This document shows positions 16,867-53,360 of a DNA stretch of 64,000 bases, one piece after another. The DNA is from Mesotaenium endlicherianum (Eukaryota). The first letter of the stretch is position 1; every line of letters begins with the position of its first letter. The notes beneath the pieces were generated by a model. That model made no database searches, was not told the DNA's origin, and saw only the letters and a program-made list of their open reading frames with translations. The DNA lies in contig WELA01003378.1 of the NCBI GenBank assembly GCA_009602735.1, positions 189,712 through 253,711 on the forward strand. The letters are read 5' to 3'. The translations under genes and the position numbers were made by a program.

Positions 16867-16911
<45 letters not shown>

Positions 16912-24900: not shown

Positions 24901-25619
24901 TCCTCCGGCGATGTACATTCGCCCAACCTGTTAGGATTCACGCTTGCTCCATCTGATGACCTGGCCAGGGCCACCGAAACAAGGTACATCTCCTTCACCT
25001 GATTCGCCCTGCATAGCTTCTTAACTTGCAGGCTCGACAGAAGACGATTACTTGTGGTCGTATCTACCTCCACCTGTTTTGCTGTCTCCATTCGACCATC
25101 ATGTCGTTGGACTTTCACTTGTCCTGTGCTCTAGTGCACTTGAGGGTTGGCTTTTCTCAGCCATGGTCGGCCCAATATCACCTCGTGGTGACCTAACTTC
25201 GCCTGCTCCATAACTTCAGTACTCTGGTGCCCCGCTACTTCCACGTGAATAGCTTCCGTAGATGCACCATACTTGAGTCTCTGCCCATTTGCCAAAATTG
25301 CCTCCTTAGGCTCATAATGCTTTTGCACAAAGATTCGCCACTCTTTCACCAGCTTCTTGTGCACAAAGTTTGCACTTGCGCCACTGTCGACCATACACTT
25401 CGCCTTGTTGCCGTCGACCACTCCTTCCACGATGATAGGATTGTCAACATCTCGTCTTTCGCTTCTCGGCAGGCTCCTGGAGATAACCTCCTTGTGAGTT
25501 CTCGTCTTCACGCCAGTAGACACCCCAGAACGTCTTACTGGCGTCCTCCTTTTTCTTGCTGTTGATGTTGCTTCGACTTCAAATGAAAGTCTCGAGCCAG
25601 ATGTCCAAGCTTGCCGCAA
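21939..25619 (-). CDS. pol: Family D pol (protease, RT, RNase H, integrase, chromodomain); one in-frame TAG at 25131-25133
   Basis: [32 protein letters not shown]...CDAC; SDRDPRF; YEVEAIL...YLVKWKGY...TWEPE. Confidence 0.93.
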
Positions 25620-26566
25620 TTATAGCAGGGTCCTCTCGGCTTGAAATTTTGCTGCCTGCGCTGGTACTGCACAAGTCCCAACTCCATAGGTACTGGACCT
25701 TGTCCACTCGTGCTTGGCGCTTGAGATCCAAATTGTCGATATGCTCCAAAGTTGTGGCTGCCCCACTGCCTCTGACTATACTCCAGAGCGTCGACCCTTG
25801 TTGCCAATGCCATCATTTCTCCAAGACTGGTAGGGTCCTTGAGCGCCACTTCCTTGGCCACAGTTGGCTTGAGTCCCCTCTTGAACTTGTCCATCATCTC
25901 CGACTCGTGCATGGATGGACATTGAAGCACCAGCTCGTTGAAGCGCGATACATACTCTTGAACGCTTCCTCGTTGACGAAGGCGCACCAATAGATCTCGA
26001 GTAGTAGCCTCGGGTGCAATAGGTTGAAATTGCCTCTTCAAGCCTTCAAAGAGCTGATTAACAGTAGCAGGGACTCCAGACAGCTGCTCCTGTCGCTCAT
26101 ACCAAGCTCCAACACTCTTCTGCAGCAAAGTTATGACAAAGGCGACTTTCCTGTGTGGCGTAAGCGCAAAATACTCCATAAACTTCTTCACACCAAAAAT
26201 CCATTGATTAACAGGCGGCGATCCACGCTCTTCAGTATAAACTTTAGGCTTAGGGGCACGCATTCCTGATGCGGGTGGAGTAACTGGTTGCACCATTGGG
26301 TTAACATGAATTGGTGGCACAACAGGTGCAGGTGCCAAACTCGTCGAAGCGGCGTTCCCCATAACAACTTGCACCATTCTCTCCACCTCCTGGCGCATAT
26401 TTTGTTGAAACTGTGTGTAGACTTCTCCTTCAATTGCGTTTGCCATCTGCCTCAACATCGCCTGCATCTCTTGTTGCTCCCTTGACAAAGGTGGTGCTTC
26501 CTGCTGCCCCGCGCGCTCAACATGCTCAACATGCTCGCCTCCTCCAGCTGCTGGCTGCGACTCCAT
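25535..26566 (-). CDS. gag: Family D gag
   Basis: 343-aa ORF with LRQRGSVQEY, PVPMELG and a degenerate zinc knuckle [14 protein letters not shown]. Confidence 0.93.
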   Translation of the reverse strand: MESQPAAGGGEHVEHVERAGQQEAPPLSREQQEMQAMLRQMANAIEGEVYTQFQQNMRQEVERMVQVVMGNAASTSLAPAPVVPPIHVNPMVQPVTPPASGMRAPKPKVYTEERGSPPVNQWIFGVKKFMEYFALTPHRKVAFVITLLQKSVGAWYERQEQLSGVPATVNQLFEGLKRQFQPIAPEATTRDLLVRLRQRGSVQEYVSRFNELVLQCPSMHESEMMDKFKRGLKPTVAKEVALKDPTSLGEMMALATRVDALEYSQRQWGSHNFGAYRQFGSQAPSTSGQGPVPMELGLVQYQRRQQNFKPRGPCYNCGKLGHLARDFHLKSKQHQQQEKGGRQ

Positions 26567-27294
26567 AGTATAATATGCAACTAGCCCAGCTCCGATACCA
26601 GATGAAAGGGGCAGAGTGCCCTAGTTGAAGCGTAATAACTCACGAGGAAAAGAGCCAGTTGCAATCATACTAAAGAGTGCAGCGGTATATCACTAAGAAA
26701 GCTTAGGATGGAAGGCCTTGTCATTACCAACCCGTAGAAATTTACAGAAGTGAAAATTGATAAGAAACAAAGTAGTTCTGCCTATTTATAATTTTCTGCC
26801 TAAGTGCTCCTCTCTAGGAGGAAGCTACAGATTTTCCTAAGTGTTCGTCAAATCGTCCGTTCCAGAATATTCGTGAGTAAGCCAGATCAGTATTATTTGA
26901 CGTGTCGGGCCAAATTGCGTCCACATACATGCATCGACATTACTAGAATATTCTGTCTTAGACGCGCTAGGCTAAACCGAAACTTCTAGGTAAATCGACC
27001 TAGTCGGCACTCCGCGTCAGCCGAACTTACGTGAAGGTTCGAGTTCATTCAAACGGGCCAGATCGCTCGACGCTGTCGGTGAATCCGACGGTCGCGCTCA
27101 CCGCGAATTAAGGACAGTCGTCAACCGACCTTAAAACTAACTAAACTTCGGAAATCCATAACTCTATCAATACTTGCCCAAATTCGATGAACTTTATTTT
27201 AAAATGACCACAAAAATGCACTCTATACTACTATACAATCAAAACATACTTTCATGAAACTCAATAACGCACTTTATAAACCTATGACCTTACA

Positions 27295-31842: not shown

Positions 31843-32214
31843 CCTTCCCAATACAAAAAATTTCCCCAAACCACTAAAAAACAATTTCATTGGAGAAACC
31901 GAGATCAGCTGTCGTGCCTAACAGTGTTGGTCCCTCGGCACGCGCGTAGCCTTCCAGCACGTGTGCCTTCGACTTGGTCGATGTGTCGGTGGCCCTCCTC
32001 ACGTGTGGGCAGACATGGTCTATCGACCTTCGCACGTGTGTCGGTGACAAGCCTTACCAAGGTTGACCCATTCCTGGGCTCCTGAACTTGCACCATGCAA
32101 CCATGACCAACACTCAAAGCAATGTTGTCCTTCACCCAGCTCTCACCATCTGCTTATCCTAAAACTTAGCAATTTTTTTTTAAAATGCTTGCCTTGCCTT
32201 AATTCCTCTTACAA

Positions 32215-34106
32215 GGACGGAAGTCTCTTACTTCCACATAGGCTTTATGCCTTAAGGTTCTTGGGTTCACAGGCGAGCAGATTGTAGTTTGCAGAAATCA
32301 CACTCTAAGCAGCTTGACATACAACGTCAGATTCAGAGAAAATTGCCCTTCAGGCTTTCGCATAACTTTCACAAAGTCACAGCTCACAAAACTTTGAAAC
32401 TACACGTCTATGCTGGCCTGGGTCAAGCTCTTCACTTAACACCGCGCCTTGACAGCTCTTCACTGCCAGGCTAGGCTCACTCAGTTCTTCACTGAGAGCT
32501 TTATCTGCCAATACTACCCTCTCTCTTCGAGATGCGAATGCGACTTCTGAGAACTTGGAAACCAACACACAACTCACCATTTTAAGGCTGCTTCACACAC
32601 ACTTGTGGCGTTCGGCCGAATCTGTGCCAATCTCCTAGCAAATTCTATTCTGCAGTTCTCCTACTATCAACAGTAAAATTCCCTATTGAGAACTCCAAGA
32701 ATCCTAACTTATCTATGATACAGTGAGCAGAATCTTCAACGTCGGCAGAAGCGTGGGGCCTCGGCTCTCCAATGGCCTTGGGAACTCCTACTTCTTCTTC
32801 GCGTCCTTCTTCTTCTTCCTTCTGCTCCTTCTGCTCCTTCTGCTTCTTGGCAAAAGTGCGTGAGGGTGAATGACATGTCTCAGGCAAGATTCGTGCCTTT
32901 CGCAGGCACCTCACAGCGTCATCTTTCGAGAATGCCGTGCTTAGTCACAAAGCTTAGCTGCATGTCGCTTCTGCCTAGCCATGCTCAACTGAAACTCGTA
33001 GTCACTCAGCATGCATGCACACCTCGTGACTGTCCCGCATGGCTGCTTAGCTTCTCAGCTGGCAGTCACGCCTAATTGGCTCATGGCTAAGAACTCCTGA
33101 GCGGCGTGTACAAGCAAATGCCACTTGCTCAAGATTCCCAACTAGGCGGCCGTAACCTATCTTGGCATTGCGGCCATGACCTGGCTTAATCTGCCAGTCA
33201 CGCAGTACCTGACTTGGTACCTGCTGGGCGGCTCATCACTGATCCCCAGCTTCTAGCCTCGCGGCTGTCTATGCTGTAAAAACCTCCCCCATCCCTGGGT
33301 GTGGGGCACATTGACATTGACCCCTTGCCAGTGGTCTTGACGCCGACATAACCGCTGACTGCGACGTAGTCAGTCAAGTGGTCGGTGAGTCAACGTTGAC
33401 TTTCCGTACCTAGGTGGCCGTAGCTTGCGCTGCACGTGCGGCACCGTCAAACGGATAGTAGTCGCGACACAGCTCTGATACCAATGTAACGTTTCTGCTT
33501 TTCAAGAGGATCTTTCCTCGGTATTCAAGGAATATTTGGTTGAAGTGGAAAGAAAATCTGTATACTTGTGCAAATTGACGAATAGTTGAAATAGCGGAAA
33601 TGAAAACTCACGTAGAATGTGTGCTTGTGAGAGTTGCACTCACAATGACTCTTGCAAGTATTTATACTTGCAAGTCGTGAGGCACTGGAGTGCTTCGAAT
33701 CACCACCTAGGGCACTGGTTCATGTTCAACGAAAACAGTTGAAGGGGTACGACCCATTCGGCCGAATGCTCGAAACGCACCGTTTGGCGGTTTGGAGACT
33801 TTTCGACGGTTTCCGAAAAACCGTTTCACGCCAAACGGGCGTTTTCGCGTTTGCGCGACTTTTGAAAAGTCGCGACTGTTTTCGGAGTCGCGTACACATG
33901 CTTTGGTCATGAACCGGGAGTTATAAATAACTACTTTGCCAATCGGTTAGGTGTGAACGTTTCAAACGACGAGTCGCGGGTTCGAATCCGCTCGGATGCA
34001 AAGTCTCTTTGCATATTATGTGTCGTTTGACTTTTACGACTGTTTCTTCGTCTTAACGACTGGTCGTAAATGTGAAATCCATGACTGTGCATTATCCAAA
34101 ATAATG
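32215..34106 (-). mobile_element. Family C copy C2: partial LTR (33485-34106), PBS (33472-33483) and 5' leader
   Basis: Matches 52442-53062 (LTR) and 51898-52440 plus 46468-47198 (leader); PBS TGGTATCAGAGC on the minus strand. Confidence 0.9.
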
Positions 34107-35100
34107 CTCGTTCATGGCTTTCTCCTAAGCTTCTGTCCACACAAAAGGCACATTTTTTTTCAGGAGTTCCGTCAGGGGTTTAGCAATTCTGCTATAATCC
34201 TTCACAAACTTACCATAATATCCGCTTAGCCCTAACATACCTTTCAGCTTAGATACATTCGCAGGTGCAGGTATTTTGTAAATAGCCTCAGTCTTCACAG
34301 CCTGAAGGGACATAGCATTGTTCCCAATCTCATGTCCTAGGTAAGGCACGTGTGTCTCAAAGAATCTGCACTTCCCAGGATGCAGCTTCATCTGGTATTT
34401 CTCGAGGCGCTAGAACACTTGTTCCAAGTGCTCGAAGTGCTCTTCCATGGACTTGCTGAATACTATCACATCGTCAATGTACGGCTTAGCAAAATCCAGC
34501 CTCTCCAGCACTTTATCCATAGTCCTCTGAAATATGGCTGGGGCATTTTTTAGCCCAAATAGCATTATTGTCCATTGCCAAAGCTCCCTTTGAGCCCAAA
34601 AAGCGGTCTTACCTCGATCCTCTGTTTTCACACGGATTTGGTTGAAGCCTTGGCGCAGATTGATGATGCTGAACACCTTCTCGGTGGCGGTAATCGCAAA
34701 GATCCGCTCCGGCGTAGGCATCACATAGCTGTCTGGCTCCGTGTAGAGATTCAGTTGCCTGTAATCTCCACACATACGAGTGGCGGTGTAGTTGCCGGCC
34801 TCGTCCTTTTTAGCGACAACTACTGTGGGAGCCCCATGCACTGAGGTAGATTTTACAATCATGCGGAGCTTATGCAGCTCTTCGCAAGTTTTCTCCACAC
34901 AGTCCCACTCTGTCTGACTGAGCTTATGCGGCCCAAGCCTGACTGAGTTATCAGTAGTTAGTGTGATCTCACACACACTGGCAGTGGTTCTACCAATCTC
35001 TTCCTTAGTAAAAGCAAACACCTTGCGGTGTTTCTTTAGCAACCTTTCTACTTGTGCTCTCTGCTGGGCTGAGACCATTTTCGCAATGGCAAAAGTCTCA
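34107..35100 (-). pseudogene. Reverse transcriptase of C1
   Basis: RMCGDYRQLN; NLRQGFNQI; LFGLKNAPAIFQR; PYIDDVIVFS; GYYGKFV; TAG at 34410. Confidence 0.92.
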
Positions 35101-37179
35101 ATTTCAGGTTGCTTCTCCCCAACAAAGGCATCTAGTAGTTGCTACTCCTTGGGTGCAGGTGGGGGCTTTTTTCCCTCATCCCGGCCCTCAGGCTTTTCTG
35201 CCTGATTCTTAGAAGGTGGGGTAGCAGGCTTTGCAGCTTGCTCCTCCGTTGCCATAGGCTCTGCAGCCTGTTTCGTAGGCTTTATACCATTCCCAATGAC
35301 GCGTCGCCTCTCTTGCTGTGAGGTGTACGTCAGGCGCCTTGAAATAGGTTGCCTCAGGAACCTTTCTTCGTCGACTGCAGTCCAACTGGTCCCGGTTCCT
35401 CCTTCTTCACGTGGCCGAGGTTAGTTTGCCATTGGCCAACCTGCAGGATCTGTCCTAGGGCTGATTACCCAACCCCACTTTTGCTCAACAATAGTCATGC
35501 AGGCGACGGTCGTGTCATACTCCTCCCTTGCGGGTGGTGTGACCGTCCATGCTTGCGCCAACGTTTGCGGCCTTTGAGGTGCCGCTAGTTGTGCGAGGAA
35601 AACATCATCTGCTGCGGTCAAGCGGCTGATGGTGTTTCTCAGATCCATCAGTTCCCATTCTGGGATTGCAGGTGTCATGGGAGCAGGTGCCTCCGACCTC
35701 TGCATCCTAAGATCTGATAGTTGCAACAAGGGCGTGTTAATGCCTGGCGGCACACTAATGCCCAATGCCATTGCCCTGTAAATCAAGCCGTCCTCTCCCT
35801 CTCTCCGCAGAATATCCCGCGGGGGCGGAGGAGGTGGGGCTGTGGTTCCTCGCGGAACGCCCTCTCTCTGAGCCTTCTCCTTATGCTTGAAATATCGCTT
35901 AAGCATCCTCCTAAAAGATGCGTTACCCTCACGGGCCACCTTCCTTGGTCTGCTTGCGCGACCCTCGGGTTTACCTTGCGCTGTCTCTACTTTAGCAGTG
36001 CAGGCAGTCACCTCCTGCCGTTCGGCGGTCGTGCGGTTGACTTGGGCTCTGCCACTGAAAGACTGGCAGTTGGGGTACTGGATGTTGGTGACCTTAGTTC
36101 TTCATAAAGGTCTGCCGGGCTTGGCCCCATCAGGTGGTCAGTTACCCAATCGTCTGTCCTCAGCACCTGCAAGTCAAGCAGATCCAACTCTGGCGTGGGA
36201 AAACGTGGAATTTCTTCCCTGGCTTCCCCTCCATTGTTGAGTGATGGCAACTCAAACTCTGGGAGGTCTTGCATCTCTGCATCCTCTCTCTCCTCCGGCT
36301 TCTCTGTTCCAGGAGGCGGCGATTCTTCATCCCCTCCTGTGTTGAGCCTCGCCATGGTGATGATGGCTGACAGTAGACGCGAGCTGCTTTCGCCACTTTC
36401 TCTTCCTTGAGTCGAGGGGCGCTCGCTTCCAGCAACTGCTTCATGATTTGCCTGGTGATTGACTCAGCTGTGCTGCCAACTGTGTCTTGTGGTTGCCCTT
36501 TGGCCTCTGGCTCTGGGCTCATCAGAACAAGTGTGGCGGGCAATCTCTCGACCGTCTCCTTCCTGCGTTCTTCAAAGATCACCTCCCGGCAAATGGTCTT
36601 TCCAAACCCTCCAGAATTTCCTGAATTTTGACTGCATTCTTCGGCCCGTTTGCCAATATTGCACTGGCTTTCTTCATATTTTGACGTTGTTGCGTCTGGG
36701 GATGAGTCTCCAAAGACCTGGTCTGGGGCCATGTTCTGTAACTCAAAAGTGGTCTCTTCCTCCCCTTTCGGCATCCTCAGAGATATTTGGCTGGAGCGTT
36801 CTGCAAATGATGGGATCACCTGTGATTCGCTTGCTGCAGCGCTCGCCAAAGGGTTTGCTTCACCAGTTGCCTGGTCTTCCATGGCTACGTCTCCTCGCAG
36901 CCTTCGCAGCTCTCTTTCCAGAGGGTCGTGTAGAGCTGTCATCCGATTGTCAATTCGCTCCAGTAGGTCTTGACACCTGGTCAGCTCCGCCACTCTGGTT
37001 TCTCTGAGTGCTTCACCTTGGTCAGCCTCAGCTGCGTCCCTTCAACACCATATTCTTCTTGTCGATGATGCGCTTCCCTGATAGCTCTCTGATCAGAGGT
37101 TGGCACCACATGAACTCCAATCGTTACTGGTCTCGACCTGGGCATAGGCTTGTCAGAGAATGTCATCTGCTGCCAAGTC

Positions 37180-38115
37180 ATAATCGTCTCCACCAACCAC
37201 GTCATGGAGTGATGCCCAATCATATTGCCGAATATCTTCCCAGCGTCGTCCTGTCCCACCATCACAACAATTTCTTGTGCAATGGAGTTGGGTACCCCCA
37301 GGCACCTTCCCTTCTCTTCAGTTGTCGGCTCTCTCCACTGAGCTTCTCTGTCGTGCGCATTCTTGACCGTGATCCTGGGTTGGCCGTGAAGGTGGGCAGC
37401 ACCACCCTTGGCCGGCTTGGCTCGTTGACGACGAACTGTGGGTAGGAATCCCTCCTGATCACTGGTTTGGTTTCCACCATCAGTGCTTCTCCCACTCATA
37501 CTGCCGTTGGTGAGCGCCGTGTAATCTCCTCCATCTCCCTCAAGACTTCAATGGACATGCCGTTGGTCCAGAATAGTCTGGCCCGGTGTAAGAGTCCTCC
37601 GTGCCTGGCGTCGTTGATCAATACATGATGACCAAGGGTGGAGTCGAAGACCAGCCATCGATCTCCTGGCTTCATCTAGTTGTAATTCATCCCTGGATGT
37701 ACATTCTCAATCACAAACACTGGTGGGTAGAGATGCTGGCGTTCCCGCAGCATACCGATGATTTTCACCATCCAACCCCAGTGTTGTGCTCGCGGGTCAT
37801 TGAACTCCCTCCTGTGCCCAGCTTGCGAGAAAGGTTGACAAGGGAACCCCGCGAAGATCCAGTCAACTTGTAACCATACAGGTCCTCAGACTTCACATCG
37901 AGAATGTTTCCTCCAGCAAGACGCACCAAACTAGAGTCAGTAGGCACCAACGCCTTGTAATGATGCATTTGCCGCATCTGACTTATGACCTCCCTAAATG
38001 CTGTGAAAGCACTCTCATCATTGTCCACATACAGCACTTTGAATACTTGGATACCTCGCTGAATCAGTGAGATGGTTCCAAAACCAAGTCCAACGAACAA
38101 CTCCAGCACTACTCC
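37180..38115 (-). pseudogene. DNA (cytosine-5) methyltransferase domain within C1 pol
   Basis: VVLELFVGLG (I), VLYVDND (II), GNILDV (III); after a frameshift near 37873, VDWIFAGFPCQPFSQAG..EFNDPR (IV/V), VFVIENV (VI), HRARLFWTN (VIII); after a second frameshift, REPTTEEKGRCLGVP (IX), KIFGNMI (X). Confidence 0.93.
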
Positions 38116-38479
38116 TCTCCTGCGAAAAGGATCTTCCATCCTCACAATGCCTTGCGGCAGCGGGTCTACTCCTGGCATCAAATTGGCAGCAGACTTAACT
38201 GGATAAGGAACTGGCAGCAGCTCTTGCGGGCCACGGTCTCTGTTACTCACAGCTTCCAGTTGCTCCATAATCCGAGGTTGCCCAACCAAGGAAGTTGGCA
38301 TGTTGATGCTGATGTAGCCCTCTTCTTCGCGTTGCATGATGAGGTCATAATTGCCTGGATACCGGTCATTCACACAACAGTCTACCAGTCCGTAGTTTGC
38401 CTCTCCCGAGCAAACCATTTTTACAGGAATTTCTCCTGTTGGTTGCCCATCTGTTGACTGGTAAGTCACCCTCTGCTTC

Positions 38480-38790
38480 CGCAGGTCAATGACCATACCC
38501 AGGGAAATCAGAGCTTCTGTCCCCAAGAGAACATCATAGTTCTCTGCCTCTGTCACCGTGCATTCTATGAGTAGTGACGCCTCCTCAGGTTTCCCCAAGT
38601 TTACTGTGATTTTCACAGGCTTGCGGGTCATTCCACAAGACTTTGGAATCTGCCCAGATGCAATCATCAACTGAAAAGGAGTTTCTTTCAGGTCCCTTGC
38701 CGTCAATCCCAGAGCTTTCACAGCTCGCTTTCCCAAGATTACTGGCTGTGCGCCAGTGTCCAATAGGATATTGGGAGCGGCCCAGTTGTT
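38480..38790 (-). pseudogene. Aspartic protease of C1
   Basis: NILLDTGAQPVILG ... YDVLLG, in the same ORF (37765-38997) as DNMT motifs I-III. Confidence 0.88.
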
Positions 38791-39748
38791 GAACGTCAAA
38801 ACTCTATCCTTGTTTTGCACTCTCACAGTGCTGAAATTAGTAGGCAGCGAAGCGCTGTTCGCGCCTTCCTCAGCTATGTTTAGCTGCTGTCCGACTTCTT
38901 CAACCGTGAAAGGATACGTAAGACGCAGATCAGCGAGTGAAAGACAAGGAATGTGCTGAATCCGGTGTTTCACCAGAGCCTTCAGCTTCTCCAGCAAAAA
39001 CTATATGTCTTGCGTGGCCCAGGCTTGGCTTGTCGTAGCTGCGCAATCTCGTTCTCATCGAGAATGATCCGAAAGGTTTGAGAAAGCTTCCCAGCATTCC
39101 TTAGAACCAGACGGTCATGATCTGCACGCTCTGCAGCCGTTGCAGCCACTGCCTTCTCTAGCGTCAGCTTCTCGCCATTGCAGACGGTCCTTTTGGCCAC
39201 ATCTGCATTGTAGTGATTTGAGTTATTATATATTAGTATGCATATATTTTAATGTTTTAAAATATATTTGGAGTGGTATTGTGTGGAGTCAAGTGTGAAT
39301 AGGTACTCTAGTAACTTGGTTCATGTCCTTTGAACCTTCCAAGGCATTTTCGAAGTTAGAGGAAAGACCTAGAAGAACTCCATGTGGCAAAAGTCAGATA
39401 TGCCATTTTTAGGTCAAAAGGACATGTGTACATTATTCTAGAAAGAGGTGGCAAGTTTTGGGATGTGTTGGGTGCCAACACATCAACATACACCTTCCTA
39501 GAAATTACTTATGTAGCAAGTATATAAACAAGAGCTAGAACATAGAAAGACATTCCAGAATCACTCTTGTACTTGCCAAAATCCAGAAATATATTAACTT
39601 TCAAGAAGCCATCTCTCTTTCAAGAAGCTACCACTTGTGTTCAAAGATCCTTGTCTTGAATAGATAAAGTATTCTGTTTTACTAAGTACTTTATCTATCT
39701 GTTTCACTACAGTGGTATCGGAGCTAGGCACTTTGGTAGCACAAGAAG

Positions 39749-41029
39749 ATGGCCGATCCTCAAGACCAACAGCAAGCTTTCGAAGGAAGCCCTTCCTCTC
39801 CAAGACACCCTCCTCCAGCGCCGATGGGAGAGCCCACTCAAGAAAATCTGCAACAACAAGAAGCACCACAAGGAGGAGCACACCCTCCTCCAGCGTCGAT
39901 GGGAGAGCCTACTCAAGGAAATCTGCAACAACAAGAAGCACCACAAGGAGGAGCACCGTCAAATCCCGTGGCAGCCGCTATAGCAAAGTTGACCCCACCA
40001 CAAGGAGTTCCCGCAAATGAGTGGGCAGCCTTCCTAATGACCGTCCACAACCAAGTGGGCTTGGCCACCTATGAAGCAACCGTGCAAGCGTCAAGAGAAG
40101 CTATGGCTGCCATGGTTGCCCCTATTGCGAGCAATGCTCAAAATCCAGCCCCGGCTCAAGCGCCTCCACAAGAGCCAACGAGAGCAAGGAAACTCATCAA
40201 GCCCGGCAAACCCGACACTTTCAACCCCGGGAAAGGTGCCAACCTGAATTTATGGCTCTACCAAGTGGAGACGTACCTCGCGTTCCTTGAAGTACCCGAG
40301 GAGGACTACGTTCCCTTTGCCGTTACCTTACTTAGAGGAGCAGCAACATCATGGTGGCGTAACTATCAAGCGGCTATATATCAAGCTATGGCGCACCCCA
40401 TGCTCGGCCAAGAGCCCCCACCATCATATGCAAGATGGGCAGATTTTCGTGAGGCCCTCAAGAAGCAATTCATGCCCATCAATGCGGAGAAGATTGCCCG
40501 AGGAAAGCTCCACCATCTCAAGCAAACGACGTCCGTTCAAGAGTATACATCCAGATTTCACGCCCTCACTCTTGAGATCCCCAACATGTCTCTCGAGGAG
40601 AAGATTGACCGTTACATCTTTGGCCTCAAACCCAAGGTGGCAAAGGAAGTGGAGTTACGCGACTTGACGGACTTCTCAAAGATCATTGAAGTGGCCCAAA
40701 AGGTGGATACCTTGGATTTCAAGCACTCCGTGCCTTCATCTTCACGGGTACCGACGACGCGGGTGTACGCAGCCCCTTCCACATCCGAATCTGGACCCAC
40801 ACCCATGGAAATCGGAGTTATTAAAAGGGACCCCGCGGCTGCCCGGAAGAGTGGAAGACCCTCCAATGACACTTATGATGCAAGAAACCAGCAAGGAGTG
40901 AAAGCAAGACTCTCCCCGGCTGAAAAAGAAGCTCTCATGACGGCTGGACTATGCTTCTATTGCAAGGAAAAGGGCCATCGTGCACTTTCATGCCCCAAAA
41001 AGTTGTCAAAAAACGGACAGCGCCGGTAG
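39749..41029 (+). CDS. gag: Family B gag (intact, 426 aa)
   Basis: [18 protein letters not shown], zinc knuckle [14 protein letters not shown]. Confidence 0.95.
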
Positions 41030-44000
41030 GCCAGGAGCCTACCACCCCAAGACCCACTTCACGAGAAGGCAACACGCCAAGTGAGGTGGAGACCCCCGTT
41101 GAAGACGACGTTCCAGCCCCAATGAGTTTGAGAGGTTACCTTGGAGGAGAGAAGGTCCACATCTTGGTGGATAGCGGAGCTCAAGGCAACTTCATTGCTG
41201 CAGATTTTGCCACCAAGCACGGTATTACTATGCGAACTCTTGACCACGACGAGGAGATTATGATGCCCGATGGATTCTCCTATACTACCCCTTCCAAGAA
41301 GACGTACCCCTTGGCACTCTCTATCAAGTCCTTCAAGGATAGAGTAGTGTTCTCCCCCATGCAATTGGGCAAGTACGACGTCATCCTAGGGACGCCTTGG
41401 TTGACCAAGCACAACCCCCAAGTTGATTGGAGGACCGGTACTATCAAGATCAAGAATGACATCACTTCAAGAATCTGTATTTTGCGCGCAATCCAGAATA
41501 TCCAGACCCAAGACATCCAGAAGCCGGCACACGAGATACTATTGTCCGCCCTCCAACTCAAGAGACTTGTGAGGAAGGGACACGAGCTTCTTTTGGCCTT
41601 GATCACGCCAAAAGACATCAAGAAAGACATCGAGAGTCAAGAAGGCAGCCCCGTTCCCAAGGAGATACAAGAAGTCTTTGAGGACTACAAAGAAGTGTTC
41701 TCCCCGGAATTGCCCAAGGGCCTACCCCCCAAAAGATTCGTAGACCACAAGATAGAGTTGGAGCCCGGAAGCAAGCCCATCTCTCGGCCTACGTTCAAAA
41801 TGTCATACACGGAGCTAGACGAAGTCAAGAAGCAAATCAAGGAGCTACTGGAGCATGGCTTCATTCGACCTAGCAAGTCGCCATTTGGAGCCCCGGTGCT
41901 ATTTGTCAAGAAGAAAGATGGTACCTTGAGGATGTGTGTGGACTATCGCGCCCTCAACAAGATCACCATCAAGAATCGATACCCGCTGCCGCGCATGGAT
42001 GAGCTCATGGACCGGCTGGTTGGAGCCAAGTACTTCACGAAGATTGACTTACGGAGCGGCTACCACCAGATTCGCATCGCAGAACCGGACATAGAGAAGA
42101 CGGCATTCAGGACAAGATATGGACATTTTGAGTTCATGGTCCTGCCATTTGGACTCACCAACGCGCCAGCAACTTTCATGACTATGATGAACACCATATT
42201 TCAGCCCATGTTGGACAGATTTGTGGTGGTATTCATCGATGACATCCTTATCTACAGCAAGACCCTTGAAGAGCATGCGAGACACTTGAAAGAAGTCCTT
42301 GAAGTATTGAAGCAAAACAAGCTGTTTGCGAAGGAGTCAAAATGCGAGTTTGCCAAACAAGAAGTGGAGTTCCTAGGTCTCCACGTGACTGCTGATGGCA
42401 TCAAGATAGACCCCAAGAAGACCACGGTGGTGGAGGAATGGCCAACCCCCACGACCAAGAAAGAACTCCAGTCATTCTTGGGATTTGCCAATTGGTACAG
42501 AAAATTCATCCAAGGCTTCTCGCACATAGCAGCCCCCCTGACAGATCTACTCAAGAAGGACAGGCTATATACATGGACCGAGAAAGAGGAAGAGGCATTT
42601 CAAGAGTTAAAGCGAAGATTGACCACATCCCCGGTGCTCACACTCCCAAGTCCAAACCCAGATTGGCCCTTCCACGTCATCACCGATGCATCTTCCTATG
42701 CAATAGGAGCAATCCTGCTTCAAGACCAAGGCAAGGGACTGCAGCCCATCGCCTACGAGTCAAGGAAGCTAAATCCAGCCGAGCAAAATTATACAACCAC
42801 GGAGCGAGAGGCATTGGCGATTGTACATGCCTTGAAGGTTTGGCGCTGCTACGTTGAAGGACGCAAAGTACTGGTCACCACGGACCACGAGGCGTTAAAG
42901 CACCTCCAGACGCAGCCGTATCTCTCAAGGAGACAAGCAAGATGGAGCGGATACTTGCAACAATACAACATCACGATTCAGTACCAGCCCGGCAAGACAA
43001 ACCCGGCTGACCCCCTCTCAAGACTGCAATTAAATGCAGTGATGGTATCCCTAAAGACAGATCTGGAAGCTCGATTTTCAGCCGCCTATGAAAGAGACCC
43101 TTACTACAAGAACGAAGAAGCTGCCTTGGACCCACGTAAGAAGCAAGAAGGCAATTATTGGGTGAGGCAAGATACGGGCCAGAGATGTGTTCCTAATGAC
43201 ATCAACCTCCGGCTCTTGCTTCTACGAGAAGCACACGACAACCCTCTTGGAGGACACTTGGGAATCCTAAGGACCACGGGCGTTCTAGCTAGGACTTATT
43301 GTTGGCCAGGCATGTCTAAGCAAGTCAAGGAGTACTGCAGGAGCTGTGACACATGCCAAAGAATCAAGCCATCATCGCAAAAGGCGGGAGGACTCCTCCA
43401 ACCACTACCAATCCCCGAAAGACAATGGACGGACATCTCAATGGACCTTATCGTGGACTTGCCCGTGACACCTCGAGGCCATAATGCAATACTCACGGTG
43501 GTGGACAGACTTACCAAGATGGCTCATTTTATTCCCACGACGACTAAGGCTACAGCACCACAACTTGCAAGACTCATCTTTGACAACATCTTCCGACTCC
43601 ATGGACTACCATCAAGAATTGTGTCAGGTAGAGATCCAAGATTCACAAGCCATTTCTGGAAAAATCTCTTCAAGAACTTGGGTACATCGCTGGATATGTC
43701 TACTGCCTACCACCCACAATCAGATGGGCAAACCGAGCGTATGAATCGTACCCTAAAGACCTCTCTAAAGGCCTACGTGTCTACCCTCGAGCAAGACTGG
43801 GACATGTACTTGACCCCCCTCGAGTTTGCCTACAACAACACTACGCAGGCCTCTACCCAAGAGTCCCCATTCTTCCTCAACTATGGCTTCCATCCGACCA
43901 CGCCACTGAGCTTCACGGCTGGCCATGATGAAGTACCTGCAGCCACAGATTTTATGGAGACATTAGAAGCAGCCCTTACAGCAGCGAAGAAAGCTCTACA

Positions 44001-44616
44001 ACACGCGCAAGATGCTCAAGCAAGAGTGGCGAACAGATCCAGAAGAGAAATTACGTACAGAGTGGGTGACAACGTGTTACTATCATCCAAGAACATTTCC
44101 CTGAACAACAGGCCTGCCGGCAGCAAGTTCTCTCCCAAGTATTTGGGACCCTTCAAGATTATCCAGCAAGTCAACCCCGTTGCTTTCAAGCTAGAACTTC
44201 CCCAGACTATGCACATCGACCCCGTATTCCACGCTTCCCTCTTCAAGCCATATGTGCAACCCGACAACAAGTTCCCAGGACGTGTGACAACCCCACCAGC
44301 CCCAACAATAGTGGATGATCATTTGGAGTACGAAGTGGAAGACATAGTGGCTATGAGAAATTTCAGGAGACAGCAGCAATACTTGATCAAGTGGAAAGGA
44401 TATCCAGATTCGGAGAATAGTTGGGTGGCGGCGCACTACCTTGACAAAGTTCAACGAAAGTTGAAGCGCTTCCATACCGCCAACCCCCATCTTGGACCAG
44501 CCCCAAGTCTCTCTACTAGAAGCCCGAAGACTTCAGGGAGGCAGCCTGCCACCATCAAGAAGCAGCAGAAGACCCCTTGGAGGCAGCCTGCAAGAACAAG
44601 AAAGAGGAAAAATTGA
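41008..44616 (+). CDS. pol: Family B pol (PR-RT-RH-INT-chromodomain), uninterrupted, in the -1 frame relative to gag
   Basis: [46 protein letters not shown]. The usual integrase SDRD reads SGRD. Confidence 0.95.
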
Positions 44617-45889
44617 CATTAGACACTCTTCTCTTCTCGCAGTTTCTGGACAGAAAAATAAAATTGCTACTGGCAATACGTCTCTTCATAATAAATTCTG
44701 AAACTTTACCTGGCTGTAGTCCATGAGTAGCCGGTCATTTAGAGTCCAAGTTTGCTCAATTTGGAGCACTGGTGAGAGAGATATGATGCTCTAAGTAGAA
44801 GGGGGTCAGGCTGCTGGCATTGTTAGGACAGAATATGCCTTCTGACATTGTGCCTTCCCCTGAACTTGGAATGCTCTAAAACTCAAAAGTTTTGTAGAAC
44901 ATCTTACAGCGCCCAGTTTGAGACTTAGTTTGCAGAATTTGGAGAAGCATAGAAGGACTTATGATTTTCAGAAGTTTCTGCACAGATTTGGAGGAGTGCC
45001 TACTCTCTCAGCTCTCAACGACACTCCAGAAATGACAATGCTCTCAAATTTGGTGACCCCGTAGAGTTCTCCGACGCGGTCCGTCTGGCACTCAAATTTT
45101 AAGATTTGGAGCAGTTCTGTGGCCGCTATGAATGTTTGAGTTTGTGGCAGATTCTGGGCCAACTTATACAATTTTCTTTATCATTAAGGAGTAGGCTAGC
45201 CAATAAGGTCACACCACCTACGACCTTGCCTAGTCTACCTTACATGTGTAGCACCTGACTTGGCGCCTGTGACTAGTCCTCTTCACATGTGTGGCATCTG
45301 ACTTGAAACTGTTGACTAGTTTGCTCCACATGTGTAAGACCTGACTTGACGCGCCGAGACGTCGCTTTTTCTATCGGGGGGGTGATGTAGTGATTTGAGT
45401 TATTATATATTAGTATGCATATATTTTAACGTTTCCAAATATATTTGGAGTGGTATCGTGTGGAGTCAAGTGTGAATAGGTACTCTAGTAACTTGGTTCA
45501 TGTCCTTTGAACCTTCCAAGGCATTTTCGAAGTTAGAGGAAAGACCTAGAAGAACTCCATGTGGCAAAAGTCAGATGTGCCATTTTTAGGTCAACAGGAC
45601 ATGTGTACATTATTCTAGAAAGAGGTGGCAAGTTTTGGGATGTGTTGGGTGCCAACACATCAACATACACCTTCCTAGAAATTACTTATGTAGCAAGTAT
45701 ATAAACAAGAGCTAGAACATAGAAAGACATGTGGAGAATCACTCTTGTACTTGCCAAAATCCAGAAATATATTAACTTTCAAGAAGCCATCTCTCTTTCA
45801 AGAAGCTACCACTTGTGTTCAAAGATCCTTGTCTCGAATAGATAAAGTATTATGTTTTACTAAGTACTTTATCTATCTGTTTCACTACA

Positions 45890-46330
45890 TGCATCCTTGT
45901 CCAAGTACAGAACCAAGCTTGTAAAAGCGACTAACTGAGTGTAAGAAGAATCCTTTTGGATTCTCTCAAAGAAATTAGCCCAATAGATCTCATCAAACTC
46001 TTCGAAAGTGAGACTATTTCCACCGGTTCGTCCACTAAAACACTTTGTAGACAGCTTGAACTTAGGATTTTCAACCTTATCATCACCAGTCATTTGGAAT
46101 GGCGACTAAGACTCACTATCTTTACCCCACACGTCATGCTCTCTGCCCAAATTAGGTACAAAGGCTTGCGTGTTATACGGATTCTCACCGTTCGTGGCGG
46201 TTTGGCGAGACTCGTCTCCCAACGGTTGCTCACTCCACAGGTTATCCGTGCGCTCAGATGTCTCACTTCCTCGTGGACTCTGGCTTGAATCAAAACCTTC
46301 TGCAGGCTCCACAGGTAGTAGAGTCTTCCA
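45890..46330 (-). pseudogene. Probable C1 gag N-terminal part (continues at 39208-~39000 after the B insertion)
   Basis: Coding-like frame (KCFSGRTGGNSLTFEEFD...YLDKDA|DVAKR) placed between the leader and the protease; no zinc knuckle seen. Confidence 0.5.
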
Positions 46331-47437
46331 CTCCTCAACCGCATGTACAGTTGAATTTCTTCGGGTCCCCTTCCAGGTTGAGCACCGGCAGTCCTCACAG
46401 GCCTCAATCCCCAATTTGCTTGGGAATTTCTATTCACCTGAACCATAGAACCGAAGTTCTCAGAAGTAGGACGGAAGTCTCTTACTTCCACATAGGCTTT
46501 ATGCATTAAGGTTCTTGGGTTTACAGGCGAGCAAATTGTAGTTTGCAGAAATCACACTCTAAGCAGCTTGACATACAACGTCAGATTCAGAGAAAATCGC
46601 CCTTCAGGCTTTCGCTTAACTTTCACGAAGTCACAGCTTACAAAACTCTGAAACTATACGTCTATGCTGGCCTGGATCAAGCTCTTCACTTAACACCGCG
46701 CCTTAACAGTTCTTCACTGCCAGGCTAGGCTCACTCAGTTCTTCACTGAGAGCTTTATCTGCCAATACTACCCTCTCTCTTTGCGATGCAAATGCGAAAT
46801 CTGAGAACCTGGAAACTAACACACAACTCACCATTTTAAGGTTGCTTCACCCACACTTTTGGCGTTCAGCGAAATCTGTGCTAATCTCCTAGCAGACTTT
46901 ATACTGCAGTTCTCCTACTTTCAACAGTGAGATTCCTTCTTGGGAACTCCTACAATCCTAACTTATCTATGATACAGTGAGCAGAATCTTCAGCGTCGGC
47001 AGAAGCGTGGGGCCTCGGCTCTCCAATAGCCTTCGGAACTCCTTCTTCTTCTTCACGCCCTTCTTCTCCTTCCTTCTGCTCCTTCTGCTCCTTCTGCTTC
47101 TTGGCAAAAGTGCGTGAGAGTGAATGACATGTCTCAGGCAAGATTCGGGCCTTTTGCAGGCACCACACAGCGTCATCATTCGAGAATGCCGTGCTTAGTG
47201 TAAAGAATCAGTATATTGGTTGACATAATATTCATTTAAATAATATAGTTAAATAAGTTCAGTCTGCTGAACTCTAGTTAATAATCAGTCTGCTGGACTT
47301 TATACTTAATAGCAGTTTAATGACTCGGACGGATGTAGCAGGCTGGTGTCACCTTAAGTCAGCTTGCTGACACATTCTTTGTCAGCCAGCTGACTTCCGT
47401 ACTCGATAGCAGCAAACTGCCTCGGTATGCATCTAAG

Positions 47438-49113
47438 CTATCGAGGAGGGAGAACCGCTGGAGCCAGATGCTGGAGCAGTTCCAAGTCCAGATCGACTAC
47501 AAACCAGGGAAGTTGAATCCTACTGATGCACTCTCTAGAAGACCTGACTTGCACGAAGCGAACTTCAGTCAGCATGCTGTAGATAAAGTCCTGTGTGCAC
47601 TCACTTCACTAAAGGTGAAAAAGTCCTTCCTAGAACAACTTAGGAAAGCCTACCTTTCTGACCCAATATTTGAGCCCAGCCCCACTACTGGTGTGTGTCG
47701 TGCTACTGCACTCGGGTATAAGCTTAAGGGAGGGGTCTGGGTGACTTAAACCACTTCAGCCAGGCTGAAGCTGGTCATTCCTAATAACTTGGAAATACGG
47801 TCTCTCTTACTGAGTCAAGCGCATGACAGTCTCTTGGGTGGACATTTGGGGCACGCCAAAACTGTTGGCAAACTGGCAAAACATTATCATTGGGAGGGGT
47901 TACCCCGGGAAGTCTTGAAATATGTCAATTCTTGTGACCAGTGTCAGAGAAATAAGTCTCGGCACACACCACCCGGAGGTCTCTTGCAACCACTGCCCAT
48001 CCCAGCTGGACGCTGGGAAACTATATCCATGGACTGGGTGGTCTCATTACCAAGAATTGCCATGGGCATGATTCAATACTGGTAGTCGTGGGTAAACTGA
48101 CAAAAATGGTCATTTTTATCCCCACAACTGTCAAAGTGACTGCACTCAAAACAGCGAGGCAGTTCTACAACCATCTGGTATGCCAACATGGCCTCCCTTC
48201 TAATATCATCTCAGACAGAGACTCAAAATTCACCTCTAAGTTCTGGAGAGCTTTAATGGGGTTAATGGGAGTCAAACAGCTGCTCAGCACAGCAAACCAC
48301 CCTCAGACTGATGGGCAGACTGGAAGAACTAACCGAGTTCTGCAGGAGGTGCTGAGAGCATATATTAACCAAAAACAAGATAATTGGGATGACCTGTTAC
48401 CTCAAATTCAGTTTGCGGTCAACAGTGCGGTGCACACGTCAACGGGCAAGACTCCTTTTGACCTCAGCCTGGGTAGAGTCCCTAAGTCTCCTTTAAATAA
48501 ACTGGGGGAGTCTTTAACTTGCCCCGAAGGGATGGACAACCCGGTCTCCCTCCAGTTAACTCAGGAGTTTGTCAAAAGTCCAACAAAACATGCACAAAGC
48601 CCAAGAAAACCAACAAAAATACGCTAATCAACACCATCGGGAGCTGACATTTTCCAAGGGCGATTTAGTCAAACTGCATTCTCAGCACGTGTACCTCCCT
48701 GGTGTGGTCAATAAAAAGCTTGGCCATGTCTAGGTCGGTCCATGTTTGGTGGTACGTCGTATCGGTCAGAATGCTTACAAACTGAACATGTCAGCTGAAT
48801 ACAAGGGTCACCTGGTCTTTAATGTCTCCTTCCTGGAACCATACATCAAAGGTGATACACTGTTTAAAGGTCGGTTACCTGTCCAACCGGGATCGATCCC
48901 TGCTGTCCGGGACGTCGATCCTGAGGAATATGAGGTCGATGAGATTTTAGACGCTCGCTCGGACCGTCGATCGAATAAATATGTCATGAAATACCTCATC
49001 CGATGGAAGGGTTACGATGCTTTGGGGACACTCGAGAATTTAAAAATCAGCTAACCAATGCCAAAGGGGCGTTGAAACGGTTCCACCTTCGGGCGGCTGG
49101 GACACCTCCCTAA
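47438..49113 (+). pseudogene. pol: A2 RNase H end, integrase and chromodomain
   Basis: HDSLLGGH..CDQC; ISDRDSKF; HPQTDGQT; YEVDEIL..YLIRWKGY; stops and frameshifts. Confidence 0.9.
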
Positions 49114-49398
49114 CTGTCCCTTCAGTAGACATGGGAAGGTGACAAGAGGTCCTGTCTCCAAATAAGTTGGAGGGGGATGTGATTGTTAGTGACAGTTGTG
49201 ACAGGCAGCCCACCTTTAAAATTAAGTTGGAGGGAGTAGTATTCTCTGACCACCATATTACACACTCAACCTTCGCTCACACTCACTTGCTCTCTAACTC
49301 AATTTTCCCTTATATTCACTCAAACCAGGTATTCCACACTAGGAACTCTCCCGATCGCGTTCCTCTTCATCAAGGGCACTCGATAGCAGCAAGATATT

Positions 49399-51096
49399 AT
49401 GACTTCACTAACTGCATTGTGTTTACAATTGAGCAGGATGACTCAAAAGTCGGAACTCAAAAGGGCGAAAGAGGCACATGCAGAATACTTGAAATTCCGT
49501 GGAGACATCGAATCATCTTCCATCTCCGCTCGGGAATCACAACGACTCCAACAACAGCGGGTGGCACAGAAGAAGAAGGAGGAGGAGGAACAGGCCAGAT
49601 TGAGGCAGGAAGAAATAGACAAAAAAGCTGCAGAGAAGGCCAAGAGAGCAGAGGAGGAGAGGCAAGCTGAGGAGAAGCGGAAGCAGCAGGCTGAAGAAGA
49701 AGAACAGAGGAGAAGCAGCAGCTACCGCTACACAGTGCTGGGCAAGGGCTTTGATCTGCTGGAGGAGGCCTTCAAGTATGCCCAAAGAAGTCGCAGCGAG
49801 TCGCAGAAGGAAATCCTCCAGAGGGAAGGGGAGACATCCACAAACTTTGACAAGTATATAGAGGTCAGCACAGGGCTCCTCCTCTTCCACGATCATGCCA
49901 GGATGGTAGGATATACAATCAGGGAGGCCAAGGCAATGGCCCAGGTGAACGAAGCAGGGGCTGTCTCGATTCCTAATATCTGGGGGGAAAGTAGGGTCAT
50001 CAGGATGATCCCCATGGACGCGGACAGCTTCAAGGACTCAACACCCCACAACAGGTTCAAGGCCATGTACAATGAGGTGGAGAGGAGGAGCTGGGAATTC
50101 TTGGCCAGGGAAACCAGCCAGCTGGACTTTGCAGGGCACTGGTACCCTTGTACTTCTAAAAGGTCAGACCCTGCCTTCTTCCAAAAGCCCACGGATTGGC
50201 GGTGGATGACCATCAACATGAGGGACCAGCAGAATGACAAGGCGACGGATGAGGATTTCCTGACAGACCTAAACGGGAACATAGTATTGCCCCCTCACAT
50301 TGCGGCTTGAGACCCACGATTGGATGGAGTCAGAGACTGCATGAGCCAAGAGATGAAGGGGGACAGAAGTAGGGCCCGAGAGTCATTCTCCAAAGGGAAG
50401 CACGCTTATGCGAAATGAGCAAGTAAGCAGGGGGAAAAGGACCTCTATGCGGTCCGGACTCAGCAACCCCCACCAGCACCCAAAAGGGGAAGGTCAGTAG
50501 GATATTCTTTTTCTCGGGAAGAGCTGGAGCAGCTGACAGAAAAGACCCCAGAAGTCTCAGAGGAACCCAGGGACGGAGAGGAGGAGGAGTCAGAGGAAGA
50601 CGAGGAGGAAGGCGAGGAGGAGGACACTAGCCCCGCCGTGATCCTGACGCCTGCCACATCCCCTATAAGGGAGAAGACGGGGTTGGCCATGCAGCAACTC
50701 GCTGAAGAGGAGGATATCACTTGGCTGGGGATCGCCAGAGGACAGACCCCATCTCCAAGCAAGGAGACCCAGTCAGACAGGGCAGACAGGAGGGCTGCTC
50801 GGGAGATTGCCAGAGGCCTGCCAGCATCTCCCTCGCAGAGAGGGCATGTACCCTTGGCTCATGTCTTGCAACATCCTTCTGGGATGCCGGTATACGTACC
50901 TGTCAGTTTGAGGGCTGCCCAGGAGAAGGCTGCCTCCCTTCAGTTTCAGATTGTGCAGGAGGAAACAGCCCAGTTATTGCATTCTCCGCCAGGTCCTTAC
51001 ACGGAACCTCCTTCTCTGACAGGCTTCAGAAGACCCCAAGACAGGAGGAGGTCTGGCTCCCCTGAGTATAGGGCCTCAGGGACATCTTCCTCTTAA
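49399..51096 (+). pseudogene. Family A extra ORF, ~565 codons in one frame, unknown function
   Basis: Only two stops (TGA 50308, TGA 50416), both TGG in other copies; N-terminal charged coiled-coil-like region, aromatic-rich core, acidic and Pro-rich tail. Confidence 0.85.
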
Positions 51097-53360
51097 GGGC
51101 AGTAAGCTAGGGACAAGAGGGAGAGCACGCTGTTGTTAGGTTTAGTGTTGTCGAGGCGACAACATGATAAGTTGGAGGGATTGTAATGAATCAGTATACT
51201 GGTCGATATAATATTCATTTAAATAATATAGTTGAATAAGTTCAGCTTGCTGAACTCTAGTTAACAATCAGTCTGCTGGACTTTATACTTAATATCAGTA
51301 TAATGACTTGGCCGGAAGTAGCAGGCTGAGGTCACCTTAAGTCAGCTTGCTGACACATTCTTTGACAGCCAGCTGACTTCCGTACTCGGTAGCAGCGAAC
51401 TGCCTCGATATGCATCTAAGTGTGGTATGCTAGATGAATGGCCAGATGACATCCCTATGATGGATGGCGATTCGGGATGATGGGAGATGGCGGTGGATTT
51501 GGTTAACCGAGGTCCTACCAACGTAGTTACTCCCGGGTAGGCGGTGCCATCGCACTGTTGAACAGTAAACTCATTCCATGTACATATGCTAGGCATTGCT
51601 CTCGAGTTCGGCATTTGGAAACGAGGCCAACTCTCTTGTACAGCATACTGAGAGAGATCTGAATCCAAGGCAAGAAGCCATTGATACACACTGTCTTCTG
51701 ACCTTGCTTATGTATGAGTTTACTGATTTGCATTATTGATGCTAGTTTACTCGCATTTGACTTACGAGTATTATTCACTGCTAGTGTATTGTCCTTTGCG
51801 GTTTAACCAGTTGACGGAAAATACCATGAAGATTACTTGCTGATATAAAGATCTTTATTAATTGTTAATCGCCTATATGGTAAGTCGATTCATTTTACTT
51901 ACTCACAAAGCTTAGCTGCATGTCGCTTTTGCCTAGACATGCTCAACTCAAACTCGTAGTCGCTCAGCATACATGCACACCTCGTGACTGTTGCGCGTGG
52001 CTGCTTAGCTTCTCAGCTGGCAGTCACGTCTAATTTGCTCATGGCTAAGAATTCCTGAGCGGCGTGTACAAGCAAATGCCACTTGCTCAAGATTCCCAAC
52101 CGGGCGGCCGTAACCTATCTTGGCATTGCGGCCATGACCTGGCTTAATCTGCCAGTCACGCAGTACCTGACTTGGTACCTGCTGGGCGGCTCATCACTGA
52201 TCCCCAGCTTCTAGCCTCGCGGCTGTCTATGCTGTCAAAACCTCCTTCATCCCTGGGTGTGGGGCACATTGACATTGACCCCTTGCCAGTGGTCTTGACG
52301 CCGACATAACCGCTGACTGCGACGTAGTCAGTCAAGTAGTCGGTGAGTCAACGTTGACTTTCCGTACCTGGGTGGCCGTAGCTTGTGTGCGCGTGCGGCA
52401 CCGTCAAACGGATAGTAGTCGCGACACAGCTCTGATACCTATGTAACATTTCTGCTTCTCAAGAGGATCTTTCCTCGGTATTCAAGGAATATTTGGTTGA
52501 AGTGGAAAGAAAATCTGTATACTTGTGCGAATTGACGAATAGTTGAAATAGCGGAAATGAAAACTCACGTAGAATGTGTGCTTGTGAGAGTTGCACTCAC
52601 AATGACTCTTGCGAGTATTTATACTTGCAAATTGTCAGGCATTGGAGTGCTTCAAGTCACCACCTACGGCACTGGTTCATGTTCAACGAAAATAGTCGAA
52701 GGGGTACGACCCGTTCGGCCGAATGCTCGAAACGCACCGTTTGGCGGTTTGGAGACTTTTCGACGGTTTCCGAAAAACCGTTTCACGCCAAACAGGCGTT
52801 TTCGCGTTTGCGCGACTTTTGAAAAGTGGCGACTGTTTGCGGAGTCGCGTACACATGCTTTGGTCATGAATCGGGAGTTATAAGTAACTACTTCGCCAAT
52901 CGGTTAGGTGTGAACGTTTCAAACGACAAGTCGCGGGTTCGAATCCGCTCGGATGCAAAGTCGCTTGCATATTATGTGTCGTTTGACTTTTACGACCGTT
53001 TCTTCGTATTAACGACTGGTCGTAAATGCGAAATCTATGACTGTGCATTATACGAAATAATGTCAATCATATCAACTTAGTCAGTTGGAGATTTATTAAG
53101 TTATTGGCTCATAATCAATCAAAGTAACTTTATGAATAAATATGCCGTACTTTTGCGAAGTAGTCGAGTTACGTTACAACGCTTTTTGCAATAGTATCTC
53201 GGTCGTTTTGCCAATCGACCAGGAATTAATCGGCACACGCGTGTGGTGAATTATTGAGTATGACTCAATCATGTATCAAATAATATGATGAATAGTATAA
53301 CGTACTTTAGGTAACTGGGAAAACGTCCCAAATACGCCTAAAATAGCTCGGATCGTTACA

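Follow-up and report, generated by a model that had tools for sequence, protein, structure and literature searches.

Cytosine methylation is the host's chief weapon against transposons, which makes a transposon with a de novo methylase of its own a paradox, and such methylase-bearing transposons have been published for few algae only. The closest described system is KnitGypsy-Dnmt3 from Klebsormidium nitens (de Mendoza et al., 2018; PMC5890265), which the preprint on EpiLTR retrotransposons calls the 'Gypsy-DNMT3' of streptophytes (bioRxiv 10.64898/2026.05.21.726589). Here we describe a locus of Mesotaenium endlicherianum in a stretch of 64 000 nucleotides (assembly GCA_009602735.1, contig WELA01003378.1, positions 189 712 to 253 711 of the forward strand; the whole stretch is hereafter called the window, and all positions are counted from its first letter). 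In identity as in architecture, the element at this locus is very probably a decayed and truncated Ty3/gypsy-type long terminal repeat (LTR) retrotransposon with a DNA methyltransferase (DNMT) domain of DNMT3-like type in its Pol polyprotein, in the interval between protease (PR) and reverse transcriptase (RT).

Compared by description, and not by sequence or domain order, the Mesotaenium element resembles KnitGypsy-Dnmt3 in its streptophyte lineage, in the role proposed for the enzyme and in the position of an unrearranged, DNMT3-related domain within the Gypsy Pol open reading frame (ORF), which is the hallmark of the Gypsy-DNMT3 type; it also shares the lack of PWWP and ADD modules, a lack that extends to the other retrotransposon DNMT3s as that report describes them (PMC5890265). 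It differs in having plain direct repeats, whereas the legend to Fig. 4 of the same report gives KnitGypsy-Dnmt3 DIRS-like split repeats (A-coding-B-A-B), and the Mesotaenium family in addition possesses a 1.9-kb spacer and is high-copy. The EpiLTRs of Euglena gracilis and Cymbomonas tetramitiformis are likewise LTR retrotransposons with a cytosine DNMT, but theirs is described as sister to DNMT4 and is accompanied by a Dam-like adenine methylase and a chromodomain (bioRxiv 10.64898/2026.05.21.726589). No adenine methylase family was found by Pfam in any ORF of the Mesotaenium element (the scan covered 107 of the 119 ORFs of at least 110 codons in the window, the other 12 being antisense or overlapping frames in two elements at 35.7–44.5 kb), and this copy lacks the C-terminal region in which a chromodomain would be expected. 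SymbioDIRS-Dnmt3 and SymbioLINE-Dnmt of Symbiodinium also carry a DNMT in the coding region of a retrotransposon, that of SymbioDIRS being of DNMT3 type and in Pol, but they are a DIRS element (with a tyrosine recombinase) and a LINE of dinoflagellates rather than Ty3/gypsy elements (PMC5890265). A DNMT-bearing gypsy element has been in print since the Klebsormidium report of 2018, and what is peculiar to the window is the 1.9-kb spacer and the occurrence of two diverged families within 64 kb.

A methyltransferase pseudogene within Pol

All features of the element map to the minus strand of the window by motif and frame. The aspartic protease (38449–38799; ORF residues 68–184) and DNMT motif I share one stop-free ORF of 411 codons (37765–39000), in which the protease motif LLDTGA (38749–38766) is followed about 200 residues later by ELFVGLGFG (38077–38103); the motif numbers and names used here are the textbook labels. 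The protease was recognized by PF13975 (E 3.8e-6), PF13650 and PF08284 (21.0 bits, cut-off 20.3), and a homologue search with the 411-residue ORF gave no match. The first piece of the DNMT, running from motif I to a point before motif IV (37867–38139) and delimited by frames, profile and the alignment of relatives, ends at a frame break near 37866. The new frame holds the second piece (37370–37864; placed by PF00145, translation and profile), with GFPCQPFS (37826–37849), IENV (37700–37711), HRARLFW (37568–37588) and the target-recognition peptide that an earlier, sequence-only reading of this DNA had picked out (37388–37465), and is interrupted by two in-frame stops (37676–37678 and 37496–37498). 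Beyond a second break near 37367, the third piece (37041–37367; placed by frames, profile and motif coordinates) contains EEKGRCLGVP (37290–37319), FGNMIG (37215–37232) and the tail of the domain.

Motifs I, IV (as Pro-Cys), VI (ENV), VIII (RxR), the target-recognition stretch and motifs IX and X are all present, in unpermuted order. PF00145 matched 37676–37885 with 51.7 bits (cut-off 22; E 1.1e-13) and the read-through of 37262–37885, stops being read as X, with 48.6 bits. The window was translated in six frames into 1516 fragments and searched with a profile built from 20 relatives of the domain (the clade profile), which matched the element in five collinear pieces (profile positions 115–168, E 5.8e-5; 208–268, E 1.4e-16; 282–327, E 2.1e-7; 340–377, E 1.7e-7; and 388–482, E 3.5e-4) as well as a second element of the window in three pieces within 2930–3781 (E 4.6e-6, 1.7e-16 and 6.2e-47), while the best of the remaining fragments had an E-value of 3. 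Pfam detected none of the PWWP or ADD reader modules of cellular DNMT3s upstream of the domain, where the protease stands instead.

The sequence-only reading had placed a complete C5 DNMT between the protease and RT of a Ty3/gypsy Pol at 37180–38790, and these limits fit. It was also right that the protease and motif I share an ORF, that the GFPCQ, ENV, RxR and GN motifs follow after small frameshifts and that eukaryotic N-terminal modules are absent. The word 'complete', in turn, is justified for the extent of the domain, from motif I to motif X, and not for its intactness: the frame breaks twice within it and runs into two in-frame stops, so that no open translatable domain is left, and the window DNMT is a pseudogene, complete in extent yet dead.

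Affinities and descent of the domain

Matched against the structures of the PDB, the clade profile ranked DNMT3A first (E 1.5e-22), followed by DNMT3B (about 5e-20), DNMT3C (7e-20), plant DRM (2.5e-11), M.HhaI (5.5e-9), M.HaeIII (1.8e-8) and DNMT2 (0.03–0.07), and DNMT1 and DNMT5 gave no PDB match at E ≤ 1. Taken with the published placement of the Klebsormidium domain (PMC5890265), this ranking points to a DNMT3-like clade. The window peptide from motif IV to the target-recognition stretch (P0001), used alone against the PDB, hit only M.HaeIII (E 0.002). A 'bacterial-like' label, which that hit would suggest and which the sequence-only reading had given to the compact domain, was overturned by the first rank of DNMT3A, well ahead of M.HhaI, in the search with the clade profile.

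Among 1.84 billion representative proteins, P0001 found 304 at E ≤ 1e-3, of which 41 reached E ≤ 1e-10 and the best (E 6.9e-17) was 36% identical. Among 30 relatives whose names were looked up, sources could be named as Closterium spp., Calypogeia fissa, Mesostigma viride and Scenedesmus sp. PABB004, and none of the 30 was from Klebsormidium. Domain architectures were compared in the 150 best P0001 matches together with P0002 and cluster members: among the 158 DNMT-matching proteins, 70 have the DNMT beside RNase H (RH) and/or integrase (IN), including 33 with the full order RT-RH-DNMT-IN, three are DNMT-RT and 85 show the DNMT alone, mostly as fragments.

The order gag-PR-DNMT-RT-RH-IN occurs in Closterium and in environmental contigs, and the liverwort shows PR-DNMT only. 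By Pfam, P0048 of Closterium is gag-PR-DNMT and P0002 of the liverwort Calypogeia fissa PR-DNMT; P0112 and P0284, from environmental contigs, each have the order CCHC-PR-DNMT-RT-RH-IN within one ORF, 2188 residues long in the former and 2327 in the latter. Such proteins (P0082, P0098, P0048, P0002 and P0112) have the domain order of the Mesotaenium element and group with it in the trees described below, but their DNMTs are only 26–36% identical to that of the window, they have no spacer and some of them have open full-length frames. For Closterium, for liverworts and for the remaining land plants, no paper on Gypsy-DNMT elements was found in the literature. The RT-RH-DNMT-IN proteins make up a larger sister group of gypsy polyproteins (e.g. 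P0040, the 'pol' of Scenedesmus sp. PABB004, P0017, P0025 and P0009), often with a C-terminal PHD finger, for which no description was found in the literature either. Their DNMT belongs to the same DNMT3-like family and shares the conserved target-recognition stretch, but it lies between RNase H and integrase, and these proteins form a separate clan. Single members bear further domains, a G-patch in P0025 and a Tudor-like domain in P0026.

The second DNMT element of the window ('family E' of the sequence-only reading; 2840–5236, plus strand) is diverged and truncated on either side by further insertions. It was recognized by its frames and by PF00145 (E 8.3e-5), and its DNMT (2879–3781, with motif IV as GGWECEGLS) and RT (4133–5011) lie in one frame. 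The two window DNMTs are 27% identical over 172 residues (BLASTP, E 9e-13), the target-recognition stretch included, and the two RTs are 47% identical (E 3e-94). The likeness in target recognition that had been noted between the two elements is therefore real, though the stretch is not variable, as had been supposed, being conserved over the whole retrotransposon clade.

In the RT tree (34 rows in the careful version, 56 in a quick one), the two window elements are sisters (support 98/81) and form, with P0082 of Closterium and P0112, a PR-DNMT-RT clade (99/95); the RT-RH-DNMT-IN elements are another clan (99/95) and the chromoviruses, with three from the window, a third (100/100). The DNMT tree (34 rows and 321 columns in the careful version, 105 rows in the quick one) unites the RH-DNMT-IN domains in one clan (93/92), and both window domains fall outside the core of this clan (96/96), in a group of 11 rows that also holds Mesostigma, P0112 and the PR-DNMT proteins of Closterium (87/86). 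Because the window pair groups with PR-DNMT-RT relatives in both trees, and because of the identities of 47% between the RTs and 27% between the DNMTs, a shared descent of DNMT and RT within the PR-DNMT-RT lineage is supported, as judged from sequence comparison. The earlier suggestion of one ancient acquisition followed by diversification thus stands for the common ancestry of the two window families, sisters in the RT tree, while the DNMT tree agrees with it only moderately. A single DNMT capture behind both architectures is possible. Rather doubtful, in our judgement, is the wider scenario in which one Ty3/gypsy lineage would have captured a DNMT3 once, before the streptophyte/chlorophyte split, giving rise to a green-wide self-methylating clade whose domain moved from the PR–RT interval to the RH–IN junction.

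The surrounding element, its copies and its neighbours

The RT of the element (34107–35141, minus strand, with YIDDV at 34467–34481; PF00078 E 9.5e-19, tblastn and RT trees, with Pfam and tblastn placing it at 34107–34925) stops at the RT/RNase H border. When searched by tblastn with a chromovirus Pol, it was covered only by Pol residues 292–561, and no RNase H or integrase was found downstream of it. Protease and RT follow each other in the correct gypsy order, the RT clusters with gypsy Pols, and in P0112 and P0082 RNase H and integrase follow the RT. The DNMT is not a separate insertion, an outcome that the sequence-only reading had named as refuting its call, but an integral part of a Ty3/gypsy Pol in the PR–RT interval, since the same order recurs in the 2188-residue relative, in Closterium and in the second window element.

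Between DNMT and RT lies a coding-like spacer (35142–37040, minus strand) with ORFs of 293, 151, 226 and 92 codons, for which no Pfam family and no Atlas match was found and which showed no match to the short DNMT-RT linkers of the relatives except over about 50 residues just before the RT. Other family copies have the spacer as well, as contigs from four DNA runs show. On the gag side, a coding remnant without a Pfam family, delimited by frames (38985–39208, minus strand), is cut by a nested chromovirus (39209–45889), beyond which the 5′ internal part resumes (45895–46467, minus strand), as shown by its frames and by the target-site duplication (TSD) TGCAT on both sides of the insertion.

The internal part is flanked by direct repeats of 1.9 kb, which are probably the LTRs of the DNMT element. 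The first copy (32214–34106, minus strand), the probable 3′ LTR, is 93.2% identical by self-BLAST to 46468–47199 and 95.5% identical to 51898–53062; these two segments make up the second copy (46468–53062, minus strand), the probable 5′ LTR, which as its junctions show is interrupted at 47200–51897 by another LTR element. A DIRS-like split-repeat layout was also considered and did not fit, the repeats being arranged as (BA)-coding-(BA) and a third, downstream repeat being absent, a weak argument in a truncated copy. The copy is inactivated: the reading frame of its DNMT is broken twice and stopped twice, it breaks again downstream, RNase H and integrase are absent, and a chromovirus is nested within the element. 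It is a fossil without function.

The family to which it belongs is high-copy, because four public DNA runs, which carry the labels of different organisms, yielded 1971, 58, 23 and 18 contigs with at least 80% likeness to 34107–39208, a stretch that they cover from end to end. Contigs of other copies change length right at the frame breaks of the window copy (near 37866, 37367, 37040, 36377, 36022 and 38995), and these breaks are therefore private decay of the window copy. On the strength of these length differences and of single contigs that bridge the PR-DNMT junction, the frame of the other copies probably runs on from protease through DNMT and spacer.

The window is eukaryotic and dense in transposons, and no Rfam family or tRNA was found in it. 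The nested chromovirus (39209–45889, plus strand; delimited by self-BLAST, its ends and Pfam) is the younger of the two elements and splits the DNMT element; it appears intact, with 503-bp LTRs that are 97.8% alike, TG..CA ends, the 5-bp TSD TGCAT and open frames for gag (429 codons) and for pol (1230 codons, which include PR, RT, RNase H, integrase and a chromodomain). The sequence past its 5′ LTR resembles a primer site for initiator-Met tRNA. None of the relatives of its Pol exceeds 53% identity; among those with a name, the best are from Solanum and Closterium. A second chromovirus (21208–27294, minus strand) has an open gag, a PR and a pol of 1063 codons, and its LTRs (21208–21951 and 26602–27294) are only 88% alike. 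A hAT transposase remnant with DUF659 and a hAT dimerisation domain (8273–12272, plus strand) adjoins several kilobases of CT/GA-rich tandem repeats (9260–17100) with periods of about 86–195 and inverted blocks, in which assembly gaps of N occur at 15590–16308 and 16807–16866. Seven copies of a 720-bp LTR family (1879–2599, 5237–5956, 47199–47437, 51182–51895, 53951–54676, 55420–56140 and 62685–63405) are present, each either a solo LTR or the end of an element. A solo chromovirus-family LTR is interrupted by one of them, and the flanking repeat of the DNMT element by another.

Proposed role of the methyltransferase

In intact relatives, the DNMT would be translated as part of Gag-Pol and released by the protease, would remain associated with RT and integrase, inside the particle or the pre-integration complex, and would place 5-methylcytosine on the double-stranded complementary DNA (cDNA) or on the fresh insertion, so that a new copy would bear the host's own mark from the outset. 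We put forward methylation of the element's own cDNA tentatively, as a serious possibility for these relatives. De novo CG methylation in yeast was reported for the DNMT3 domains of SymbioDIRS from Symbiodinium, and packaging with methylation of cDNA, which the sequence-only reading also suggested, was proposed there (PMC5890265).

Several observations weigh against this reading of the element and its enzyme. In the yeast assay, no signal came from the gypsy domain of Klebsormidium, a result that the authors called inconclusive (PMC5890265), and no activity has been demonstrated for any gypsy-borne DNMT3. Motif IV, in the 105 rows of the clade, reads Glu-Cys in 59, Pro-Cys in 32, Ser-Cys in two, and Cys-Cys and Gln-Cys in one each, the pattern being unmatched in 10, and with Glu-Cys in 59 rows the chemistry may therefore differ. 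The DNMT3 label is a ranking of solved structures and not a tree with named DNMT1, 4, 5 and 6; the branch of the window DNMT is very long (2.87), as is expected of a pseudogene, and its group has the moderate support given above. The limits of the element are unsettled because neither TG..CA ends nor a clear primer-binding site nor a TSD was found for the 1.9-kb repeats, and the internal part ends within the RT. Finally, only eight polyA RNA reads (3 + 1 + 4), all 90–95% alike, fell on the element's stretch among about 29 million reads from three runs whose species label matches that of the best-covering DNA run, and the family is nearly silent in these three runs.

The Glu-Cys majority and the silent Klebsormidium domain would also fit a DNMT that was no cDNA methylase at all and served as a non-catalytic or other module, for example in DNA binding or chromatin tethering, or as an RNA methylase with the genomic RNA as its substrate, an activity that was raised for the LINE-borne DNMT (PMC5890265). 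The catalytic Cys is nevertheless present in 95 of the 105 rows, EN[VTA] in 100 and HRxRxxW in 96, the window copy itself has Pro-Cys, ENV and RxR, and the Klebsormidium DNMT is reported to be under purifying selection, with Ka/Ks below 0.2 (PMC5890265); we regard a role other than that of a DNA methylase as decidedly improbable. Unlikely, too, is an enzyme that acts mainly on host chromatin or on integrated copies, whether to limit copy number by self-silencing or to mark its neighbourhood, and not on cDNA before integration. This option was left open for the published elements (PMC5890265), and it agrees with the near silence of a high-copy family and with a CpG depletion over the whole window (observed/expected ratio 0.55). 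The depletion is, however, equal in elements free of DNMT (0.58 in the nested chromovirus against 0.59 in the DNMT element, and 0.55–0.7 over all window elements), and the present data do not separate the two timings, before and after integration. Differences between the window copy and the other copies in one DNA run (X1) are likewise dominated by transitions (T>C 94, C>T 77, A>G 76 and G>A 48, against 8–24 for each type of transversion); transition excess and CpG depletion are what is expected of methylated repeats, and nothing in them is specific to the DNMT element.

In a region so densely nested with other insertions, DNMT and Pol might in principle have met by chance, through a pseudogene fragment of a host DNMT3, through a separate insertion that hit a single gypsy copy, or through chimeric assembly. 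Against such a juxtaposition, which we consider very improbable indeed, protease and motif I lie in one open frame, the same order recurs in the second window element with its DNMT of only 27% identity, in Closterium, in Calypogeia and in the single ORF of 2188 residues, and single contigs from all four differently labelled DNA runs bridge the PR-DNMT junction (one of 1662 letters spans 37547–39208).

The few published algal cases are joined here by a high-copy family and, from the same genome, by a second one that has diverged from it, with the domain at the PR–RT junction. DNMT3-bearing gypsy elements are a large group with two architectures, found in green algae and at least one liverwort, and wider than the Klebsormidium case of 2018. 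If the ancient capture were true, the presence side by side of two families that are 27% identical in their DNMTs would imply that the enzyme has been useful to its carriers for hundreds of millions of years. Apparently intact natural proteins are available for asking whether the cDNA of such elements is methylated, and to whose benefit.

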